Shown here one piece after another: positions 16,696-19,563 of a DNA stretch of 64,000 nt. The notes beneath the pieces are model-generated. The model saw only the letters and a program-made list of their open reading frames with translations. It was not told where the DNA came from and did not search any database. The translations under genes were made by a program, and so were the position numbers. The number at the start of each line of letters is the position of its first letter. Position 1 is the stretch's first letter. Origin of the DNA: Escherichia coli. Lineage in GTDB: Bacteria > Pseudomonadota > Gammaproteobacteria > Enterobacterales > Enterobacteriaceae. The DNA is taken from assembly GCF_030384885.1 (NCBI RefSeq), contig NZ_CP128613.1. One strand, 5' to 3'.

Positions 16696-16724
16696 GGCGG
16701 GAAATGCTCCCGCCTTATTTTTTG
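16696..16724 (+). terminator. Intrinsic terminator of dksA immediately upstream of gluQ
   Basis: GGCGGG-AAATGCT-CCCGCC hairpin followed by TTATTTTTT, ending 9 bp before the gluQ ATG. Confidence 0.8.
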
Positions 16725-16733
16725 TTCAACGAG

Positions 16734-17630
16734 ATGACAGACACACACTATATTGGTCGCTTCGCCCCCTCTCCTTCTGGCGAGCTTCATTTTGGCTCTC
16801 TGATTGCCGCGCTTGGAAGCTTTCTACAGGCTCGCGCCCGGCAAGGTCGCTGGCTTGTTCGCATTGAAGATATCGATCCGCCTCGTGAAGTTCCCGGTGC
16901 CGCAGAGACCATCCTGCGCCAGCTGGAACATTACGGTCTACACTGGGACGGCGATGTTCTCTGGCAATCGCAACGTCACGACGCCTATCGCGAAGCACTC
17001 GCATGGTTACATGAGCAAGGGTTAAGTTATTACTGCACCTGCACGCGCGCACGTATTCAAAGCATTGGCGGTATTTACGACGGTCATTGCCGGGAGTTGC
17101 ATCATGGGCCAGAAAACGCTGCTGTACGTATTCGCCAGCAGCATCCGGTCACCCAGTTTACTGACCAGCTGCGCGGCATTATTCATGCCGACCAAAAACT
17201 GGCGCGGGAAGATTTTATTATTCATCGCCGTGATGGTTTGTTTGCCTATAACCTGGCGGTGGTGGTGGATGATCACTTCCAGGGCGTGAGCGAAATTGTC
17301 CGCGGGGCAGATTTGATCGAACCCACGGTGCGCCAAATCTCGCTGTACCAGCTTTTTGGCTGGCAGGTGCCAGATTACATTCATTTGCCACTGGCACTTA
17401 ATCCACAAGGCGCTAAACTTTCCAAGCAGAATCATGCGCCTGCGTTGCCGAAAGGCGATCCACGCCCGGTACTAATCGCGGCACTTCAATTTCTGGGTCA
17501 ACAGGCAGAAGCACACTGGCAGGATTTCAGCGTCGAGCAAATTCTCCAGTCAGCCGTCACAAACTGGACGCTGACTACCATTCCTGAGTCGGCAATTGTA
17601 AATTCAACATTCTCAAATGCCTCATGCTGA
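16734..17630 (+). CDS. gluQ: Glutamyl-Q tRNA(Asp) synthetase
   Basis: Truncated GluRS-like catalytic domain with class I HIGH-type motif ([14 protein letters not shown]); start placed at MTDTHYIG because the track ATG at 16704 lies inside the terminator hairpin. Confidence 0.88.
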
Positions 17631-17689
17631 GCTATGATTAGCCGCTATTTTTTTGTCCTGAATGATGTTTGACACTACCGAGGTGTATT

Positions 17690-19087
17690 ATTTTTACCCG
17701 AGTCGCTAATTTTTGCCGCAAGGTGCTAAGCCGCGAGGAGAGCGAAGCTGAACAGGCAGTCGCCCGTCCACAGGTGACGGTGATCCCGCGTGAGCAACAT
17801 GCTATCTCTCGCAAAGATATCAGTGAAAATGCCCTGAAGGTAATGTACAGGCTCAATAAAGCGGGATACGAAGCCTGGCTGGTTGGCGGCGGCGTGCGCG
17901 ACCTGTTACTTGGCAAAAAGCCGAAAGATTTTGACGTGACCACTAACGCCACGCCAGAGCAAGTGCGCAAACTGTTCCGTAACTGCCGCCTGGTAGGTCG
18001 CCGTTTCCGTCTTGCTCATGTCATGTTTGGCCCAGAGATTATCGAAGTCGCAACCTTCCGTGGACACCACGAAGGTAACGTCAGCGACCGTACGACCTCC
18101 CAACGCGGGCAAAACGGCATGTTGCTGCGCGACAACATTTTCGGTTCCATCGAAGAAGACGCCCAGCGCCGCGATTTCACCATCAATAGCCTGTATTACA
18201 GCGTGGCGGATTTTACGGTCCGCGATTACGTTGGTGGCATGAAGGATCTGAAAGACGGCGTTATCCGTCTGATTGGTAACCCGGAAACGCGCTACCGTGA
18301 AGATCCGGTACGTATGCTGCGCGCGGTTCGTTTTGCCGCCAAATTGGACATGCGCATCAGCCCGGAAACCGCAGAACCGATCCCACGCCTGGCAACCTTG
18401 CTAAACGATATTCCTCCGGCGCGTTTGTTTGAAGAATCTCTGAAACTGTTGCAAGCGGGCTACGGTTACGAAACTTATAAACTGCTGTGTGAATACCATC
18501 TGTTCCAGCCGCTGTTCCCGACCATTACCCGCTACTTTACGGAAAATGGTGACAGTCCAATGGAGCGGATCATTGAGCAGGTGCTGAAGAATACCGATAC
18601 GCGTATCCATAACGATATGCGCGTGAACCCGGCGTTCCTGTTTGCCGCCATGTTCTGGTACCCACTGCTGGAGACAGCACAGAAGATCGCCCAGGAAAGT
18701 GGCCTGACCTATCACGACGCTTTCGCGCTGGCAATGAACGATGTGTTAGACGAAGCCTGCCGTTCACTGGCGATCCCGAAACGTCTGACGACGTTAACCC
18801 GCGATATCTGGCAGTTGCAGTTGCGCATGTCCCGCCGTCAGGGTAAACGCGCATGGAAATTACTCGAACATCCGAAGTTCCGCGCCGCTTATGACCTGCT
18901 GGCACTGCGTGCTGAAGTAGAACGCAACGCCGAGCTACAACGTCTGGCGAAATGGTGGGGTGAGTTCCAGGTTTCTGCGCCGCCAGACCAAAAAGGGATG
19001 CTTAACGAACTGGATGAAGAACCGTCACCGCGTCGTCGTACTCGTCGCCCGCGCAGACGTGCGCCGCGCCGTGAGGGCACCGCATGA
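17690..19087 (+). CDS. pcnB: Poly(A) polymerase I
   Basis: Nucleotidyltransferase motif [17 protein letters not shown]; basic C-tail; start placed at the ATT codon (IFTRVANF) per the known AUU initiation of pcnB; the track ORF starts at an upstream TTG. Confidence 0.9.
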
Positions 19088-19563
19088 CAGTGGCGTATAT
19101 TGCCATCGGCAGCAATCTGGCCTCTCCGCTGGAGCAGGTCAATGCTGCCCTGAAGGCAATAGATGACATTCCTGAAAGCCGCATTCTTGCCGTTTCTTCG
19201 TTTTACCGCACCCCACCGCTGGGGCCGCAAGATCAACCCGATTACTTAAACGCAGCCGTGGCGCTGGAAACCTCTCTTACAGCAGAAGAGCTCCTCAACC
19301 ACACACAGCGTATTGAGCTGCAGCAAGGTCGCGTCCGCAAAGCTGAACGCTGGGGACCGCGCACGCTCGATCTTGATATCATGTTGTTTGGTAATGAAAC
19401 CATTAATACCGAACGACTCACCGTCCCGCATTACGATATGAAGAATCGCGGCTTTATGCTGTGGCCGCTGTTTGAAATCGCGCCGAAGCTGGTCTTTCCT
19501 GATGGGACAGGATTAGACAACTTATTACGAATAAATAAGTTCGCTGAATTAAATAAATGGTAA
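19084..19563 (+). CDS. folK: 2-amino-4-hydroxy-6-hydroxymethyldihydropteridine pyrophosphokinase
   Basis: 159 aa from [12 protein letters not shown]; overlaps the pcnB stop (ATGA). Confidence 0.93.

Follow-up and report, generated by a model that had tools for sequence, protein, structure and literature searches.

Within a 64,000-nucleotide stretch of Escherichia coli contig NZ_CP128613.1 (hereafter the window), we analyzed the 5' end of pcnB, the gene for poly(A) polymerase I (PAP I), which lies on the plus strand, preceded by sfsA, dksA and gluQRS and followed by folK and yadN, the dksA-gluQRS-pcnB-folK neighbourhood being conserved in enterobacteria. The pcnB product scores 999 bits against the NCBIfam equivalog NF008634 (PcnB), above the curated cutoff of 702, and across residues 28-442 of its 465 (35-449 of the called ORF) it is approximately 99% identical to Protein Data Bank entries 3AQK-3AQN, with two differences visible in the alignment. 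The features of the locus are as follows, in window coordinates:

16704-17630, plus strand: gluQRS, the upstream neighbour, whose 3' end carries the pcnB promoter region (ORF, NCBIfam and RefSeq)
17414-17419, plus strand: TAAACT, the reported -10 element of promoter pS2 (the pS2 starts given in PMC2939334 map to 17425-17427)
17610-17638, plus strand: sigma-70-like promoter (TTCTCA, 17 nt, TATGAT) straddling the gluQRS stop, the sole promoter-like match in 17300-17900
17663-17665, plus strand: in-frame TGA bounding the pcnB frame upstream (direct reading)
17669-17671, plus strand: TTG, the opening point of the mechanical ORF call, probably unused (+0.1 kcal/mol; not conserved)
17680-17685, plus strand: Shine-Dalgarno GAGGTG, 4 nt before the ATT at 17690 (invariant in 81/81 sequences; -9.7 kcal/mol)
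17687-17689, plus strand: second in-frame ATT (codon -1), lineage-specific, ACT in K-12 (direct reading and 71-mer search)
17690-17692, plus strand: annotated ATT (AUU) initiation codon of pcnB (RefSeq start, NCBIfam profile position 1, ATT in 81/81 sequences)
17690-19087, plus strand: pcnB coding sequence, poly(A) polymerase I, 465 aa plus stop (ORF, NCBIfam and RefSeq)
17693-17722, plus strand: codons 2-11, nearly invariant in nucleotides (majority-codon fraction 0.94)
17723-17725, plus strand: GTG (Val12), the first canonical downstream in-frame codon, implausible as a start (+0.5 kcal/mol)
17843-17845, plus strand: first in-frame ATG (Met52), probably the ATG labelled +1(b) in PMC2939334 (ATG at +153 in related loci)
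19084-19563, plus strand: folK, the downstream neighbour, whose ATG overlaps the pcnB stop (ORF, NCBIfam and RefSeq)

Reading the pcnB frame directly, we found TGA (17663-17665), TGT, TTG (17669-17671), ACA CTA CCG AGG TGT, ATT (17687-17689) and ATT (17690-17692), followed by TTT ACC CGA GTC GCT AAT TTT, which encodes F T R V A N F. A preliminary description of this locus had stated that the frame lacks an ATG near its 5' end and opens at the TTG at 17669, and had named an upstream in-frame ATG or GTG as the competing possibility. The first in-frame ATG is indeed as far downstream as 17843 (codon 52), the first canonical in-frame codon after the ATT at 17690 being the GTG at 17723 (codon 12), and an ORF finder calls a 472-aa ORF from the TTG to 19087. 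The competing upstream codon cannot exist, because the TGA at 17663-17665 closes the frame and leaves no in-frame ATG or GTG possible 5' of 17666.

Both the protein family profile and the public annotation agree with the earlier placement of the PcnB N-terminus at the ATT at 17690. Positions 1-468 of the 469 in the NF008634 profile align to ORF residues 8-471, residue 8 being that ATT. The RefSeq pcnB of E. coli 2013C-4282 spans positions 2631-4028 of its locus, equivalent to 17690-19087 in the window, as a coding sequence of 1,398 nt beginning at ATT; K-12 pcnB (b0143) is likewise annotated in RefSeq with an ATT start, 1398 nt and 465 aa, and the RefSeq start in 2017-02-2CC also falls at the equivalent of 17690. 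Alignment with annotated pcnB genes, which had been suggested as a check, thus returns ATT as the start both in K-12 and in a genome identical to the window at this locus. The structures 3AQK-3AQN are uninformative on the N-terminus because the constructs begin at residue 28 of the 465-aa protein. For annotation, the practical consequence is that mechanical ORF calling from the TTG yields what is very probably the wrong protein, of 472 aa.

Upstream of the start lies GAGGTG (17680-17685), an element that the preliminary description did not mention, as it did not mention the second ATT at 17687 or the GTG at 17723. We computed duplex energies with the 16S 3' end for each candidate start, using as reference the 1st percentile over all window positions (-9.3 kcal/mol). 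The ATT codons at 17690 and 17687, which share one Shine-Dalgarno, reach -9.7 kcal/mol, as against +0.1 kcal/mol for the TTG at 17669, +0.5 kcal/mol for the GTG at 17723 and -4.0 kcal/mol for the ATG at 17843. The GAGG core ends 6 nt before the ATT at 17690 and 3 nt before the one at 17687, and since an aligned spacing of about 5 nt is reportedly optimal in E. coli (Chen et al. 1994), the former is favoured. The Shine-Dalgarno serving the pcnB ATT is strong, with near-optimal spacing, and the computed duplex of -9.7 kcal/mol does not support the term "poor" that PMC3561954 and PMC9764084 apply to the pcnB ribosome-binding site.

RNA folds did not outperform shuffled sequences (z-scores of +0.74 for 17645-17760 and +0.70 for 17665-17730) and so lend no support to a structured element, and an Rfam search over 17300-18100 at a permissive threshold returned zero matches. 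As a candidate for translation coupling, an out-of-frame 15-codon ORF (ATG ATG TTT GAC ... CGC TAA, from ATG at 17662/17665 to TAA at 17707-17709) overlapping the Shine-Dalgarno and the ATT was considered and rejected, because it lacks a Shine-Dalgarno of its own (+0.4 to +0.7 kcal/mol) and because Enterobacter, Kluyvera and several Citrobacter do not have its ATG. The C-to-T substitution at 17688 that distinguishes the window from K-12 is synonymous in this short ORF (TAC to TAT), probably by coincidence.

To place the start site in a wider context, we compared the pcnB loci of 80 Enterobacteriaceae species from one genome-collection scan with that of the window, for a total of 81 sequences from genera including Escherichia, Citrobacter, Salmonella, Kluyvera, Enterobacter, Klebsiella, Raoultella, Kosakonia, Atlantibacter, Siccibacter, Franconibacter and Leclercia. 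The codon homologous to 17690 is ATT in 81/81 sequences, and GAGGTG precedes it across a fixed 4-nt spacer in all 81 as well. The spacer itself is variable (TACT, CACT, CACC, CAAC, CGCT, TATT and others), with codon -1 being ACT in 45 sequences, ACC in 20, AAC in 8, ATT in 3, GCT in 2, AAT in 2 and CCT in 1, and the region 5' of the Shine-Dalgarno varies further, with 1-nt indels that break the frame between genera. One ATT codon by itself would carry no weight, but because ATT and GAGGTG at 4 nt are invariant while the spacer and upstream region vary, conservation of the ATT is beyond chance. As a control, the folK start in the same species alternates between ATG (39) and GTG (31), while the pcnB ATT is constant.

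[quoted passage not shown] The TTG is the sole canonical start in the open frame before codon 12, and use of the promoter at 17610-17638 would probably place it within the transcript. However, an in-frame TTG at the homologous position (-21) occurs in only 27/81 sequences, and in 43 of the 81 the stretch from the nearest stop upstream to the ATT contains no in-frame ATG, GTG or TTG at all, with some sequences carrying an in-frame stop just 15-21 nt 5' of the ATT. One-base indels and non-synonymous variation also fall between the TTG and the ATT, the TTG lacks a Shine-Dalgarno, and the ATT, not the TTG, is where the NCBIfam profile and the RefSeq gene begin. We consider a TTG start exceedingly improbable on these grounds.

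From the ATT onwards, codons 1-11 (17690-17722) are 100% conserved in amino acids, and what little nucleotide change they show is confined to synonymous third positions (ACC/ACT, GCT/GCA, TTT/TTC, CGC/CGT/CGA and AAG/AAA), which indicates that these codons are translated, since the amino acids are fixed and variation is synonymous alone. The conservation also extends to synonymous sites: across 79 sequences, the majority-codon fraction over codons 1-11 is 0.94 vs. 0.72 gene-wide, ranking first among 39 non-overlapping windows of the gene, and the first 11 codons of the neighbouring genes (0.71 in folK and 0.67 in gluQ) exhibit no comparable peak. A second peak of synonymous-site conservation spans codons 34-48 (17789-17833), just 5' of the ATG at 17843. 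The freeze in codons 1-11 suggests that the initiation region is constrained at the RNA level, which lends itself to testing, and the two peaks together point to constraint at the RNA or DNA level, acting on the initiation region and possibly on an internal promoter. The peak at codons 34-48 may coincide with the sigma-S promoter pS1 and the putative Shine-Dalgarno and AUG described in PMC2939334.

Another alternative is that the GTG at 17723 or the ATG at 17843, on sigma-S-dependent pS1 transcripts, gives rise to a shorter isoform of PAP I beside or in place of the AUU product. PMC2939334 places pS1 downstream of the AUU, with a putative Shine-Dalgarno and AUG, reports two bands in anti-PAP I western blots, and attributes the ATG labelled +1(b) to Liu and Parkinson 1989. 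The ATG at 17843 has a weak Shine-Dalgarno (-4.0 kcal/mol) and stands immediately 3' of the second conservation peak. The coding-type conservation of codons 1-11 nevertheless excludes a short isoform as the main product, the GTG at 17723 lacks a Shine-Dalgarno, and pS1 is described in the same paper as active in vivo under special conditions only. We regard this alternative as quite unlikely overall, although a short isoform is possible as a minor, condition-specific extra, in which form it would be compatible with the AUU start.

Comparison with K-12 pcnB (b0143) showed the same gene in the same sfsA-dksA-gluQ-pcnB-folK-yadN order, with an annotated ATT start and a 465-aa product, and a region from the Shine-Dalgarno through codon 12 that is identical save for one base. 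That base, a C-to-T difference at 17688, turns the ACT ATT of K-12 into the tandem ATT ATT of the window. The preliminary description had held that the K-12 arrangement is preserved here; this stands for the ATT start itself but is not exact, as codon -1 is ATT instead of ACT, in a locus that is approximately 93-94% identical to K-12. The exact K-12 71-mer spanning the start site is found in 5,416/5,424 complete E. coli genomes and the exact 71-mer of the window in 2/5,424 (2013C-4282 and 2017-02-2CC). Because at least 5,418 of the 5,424 carry one or other of these two ATT-containing 71-mers, a change of start codon is possible in at most 6 of these genomes.

The tandem arrangement opens the question of whether the ATT at 17687 serves as the main start, or as a substantial second one, in the lineage that carries it, which would add an Ile at the N-terminus and possibly change PAP I output. 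In its favour, this codon is likewise a near-cognate AUU that shares the reading frame and follows the one Shine-Dalgarno, and TATT ATT is also present in E. whittamii, Escherichia sp. MOD1-EC7003 and a homologue of 62% protein identity (L088, positions 561-567). Yet the ATT at 17687 comes only 1 nt after GAGGTG and 3 nt after the GAGG core, compared with 6 nt from that core for the ATT at 17690, and RefSeq has pcnB starting at 17690 in each of the two tandem-bearing genomes. Codon -1 is moreover free to vary non-synonymously among species (ACT, ACC, AAC, GCT, CCT, AAT and ATT), and it is because of this variation that we read it as spacer rather than conserved coding sequence. A start at 17687 is very unlikely in our assessment, and the ATT at 17690 stays the preferred start in the tandem lineage as well. 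A further, speculative and rather unlikely proposal is that the invariant GAGGUG-N4-AUU and the next ~26 nt (codons 2-9), which are almost frozen synonymously in the 79 sequences, act as a dedicated cis-acting RNA element that permits AUU initiation or tunes it, perhaps through a response to IF3 or to growth rate, and that the tandem AUU AUU is a natural variant which alters PAP I dosage or the N-terminus.

The lineage of the window can be narrowed down from the same locus. The 3,795 nt around pcnB are 100% identical to "Escherichia coli" 2013C-4282 (NZ_CP027579), and DNA identity of the pcnB locus is approximately 93-94% to K-12, 92-93% to MOD1-EC7003 and E. whittamii, and 90-91% to E. albertii. 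With only ~93-94% identity to K-12, the window belongs to a divergent lineage of Escherichia that carries the E. coli label, and may represent a cryptic Escherichia clade about as far from K-12 as named sister species are.

For homologues beyond the Enterobacteriaceae, we searched 1.84 billion protein representatives and then looked up the corresponding contigs, finding the GAGGTG-N4-ATT module in three more loci, all homologues of 62-68% protein identity. The 68%-identity homologue reads GAGGTGTACC ATT TTT TCC. One 62%-identity homologue (L086), from a 1.08-Mb genome, has ATT annotated as its start, and the other (L088) reads GAGGTGTATT ATT TTA AAA, with the gene caller's start being an in-frame GTG 12 codons downstream. 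More distant cases are ambiguous: a 55% homologue has ATT ATT but upstream in-frame canonical codons too, and a 49% metagenome homologue (L087, positions 598-615) has ATC ATC at the homologous position, 6 nt after AGGTG, with the gene caller's start at an in-frame GTG inside the Shine-Dalgarno-like AGGTGA. The latter may be an AUC-initiated pcnB.

Upstream of the Shine-Dalgarno, a -10-like TATGAT followed by TAGCCGCTATTTTTT lies directly after the gluQRS stop (17628-17660), and a TATGAT+AGCCGC block is conserved in 72/84 loci, where it lies 36-72 nt from the ATT; the 68%-identity homologue is among them. Another upstream block, CATAGAGTAA, is found in Salmonella, Klebsiella, Raoultella and some Citrobacter and Kluyvera. 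The pcnB leader can be replaced, in contrast to the Shine-Dalgarno/ATT module. The promoter at 17610-17638 is a candidate for the major promoter pB. PMC2939334 further reports a sigma-S promoter, pS2, whose start sites lie at -263 to -265 relative to the ATT and whose -10 element is TAAACT, and the primers Przedpcn and Pr10 from that paper match window positions 17430-17450 and the complement of 17702-17727, respectively.

The AUU start of pcnB is already known, having been published in 2002, widely cited since and annotated in public genomes. Both AUU initiation and the translational limitation of PAP I are credited to a 2002 paper by Binns and Masters (Mol Microbiol 44:1287) in PMC2939334, PMC3561954, PMC9764084, PMC5499595 and bioRxiv 10.1101/063800, and these citing papers bear out the earlier description of AUU as a documented brake on PAP I levels. 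According to Mohanty and Kushner (PMC3561954), Binns and Masters also presented phylogenetic evidence for AUU starts in many Proteobacteria; the same authors give approximately 30-50 PAP I molecules per cell and describe overexpression as toxic. Nadratowska-Wesolowska et al. (PMC2939334) state that pcnB is regulated at translation initiation and that its weak start may guard against PAP I toxicity. The AUU start is thereby the accepted reason why a cell holds a few dozen PAP I molecules, more being toxic.

Only one other E. coli gene, infC, is named alongside pcnB as AUU-initiated (Hecht et al., bioRxiv 10.1101/063800; He et al., PMC5499595), and both genes were set aside in ribosome-profiling analyses owing to their AUU starts (PMC4245954). 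In reporters, AUU initiation amounts to 1-2% of that from AUG (Hecht et al., bioRxiv 10.1101/063800). In infC, which encodes IF3, a weak AUU start likewise sets expression, with IF3 discriminating against non-canonical starts (PMC5499595, bioRxiv 10.1101/063800). infC is autoregulated by its own product, whereas pcnB is not known to have a feedback loop. A further parallel, as described in PMC4447247, is ebpA of Enterococcus faecalis, in which a rare ATT start attenuates expression, although this is an unrelated gene (for a pilus tip protein) in a Gram-positive host.

Taking the locus and the literature together, we hold with high confidence that pcnB translation starts at the AUU at 17690-17692, with the ribosome placed by GAGGUG and with inefficient initiation keeping PAP I scarce, and that the published K-12 arrangement is conserved here. 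The GAGGUG at 17680-17685, being strong and correctly spaced, would position the 30S subunit over the AUU. From the literature, one would expect this near-cognate codon to be poorly accepted by the initiator tRNA and IF3, making initiation inefficient, and inefficient initiation in turn to keep PAP I scarce, excess PAP I being toxic; it is likewise the literature on which we rely for AUU use, for its limiting effect on expression and for a role of IF3 at pcnB. The only slightly new points are that ATT occurs here as a rare tandem and that the synonymous sites following the start are frozen. The comparative data, in which ATT and Shine-Dalgarno are invariant across the loci of 80 species and persist in homologues at 62-68% identity, are a modest addition.

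Several minor observations concern the genomes searched and the neighbouring reading frames. Of the 5,424 matches to pcnB among complete E. coli assemblies, three are on plasmid-labelled records, and two of 5,426 genomes gave no match. A minus-strand ORF at 17638-17970 (110 aa), antisense to the 5' end of pcnB, is taken as a mechanical ORF call. The gluQRS start differs between RefSeq records, corresponding to window position 16734 in 2013C-4282 (298 aa) and to the equivalent of 16704 in K-12 (308 aa). Finally, the start of folK and the stop of pcnB overlap in the sequence ATGA at 19084-19087.
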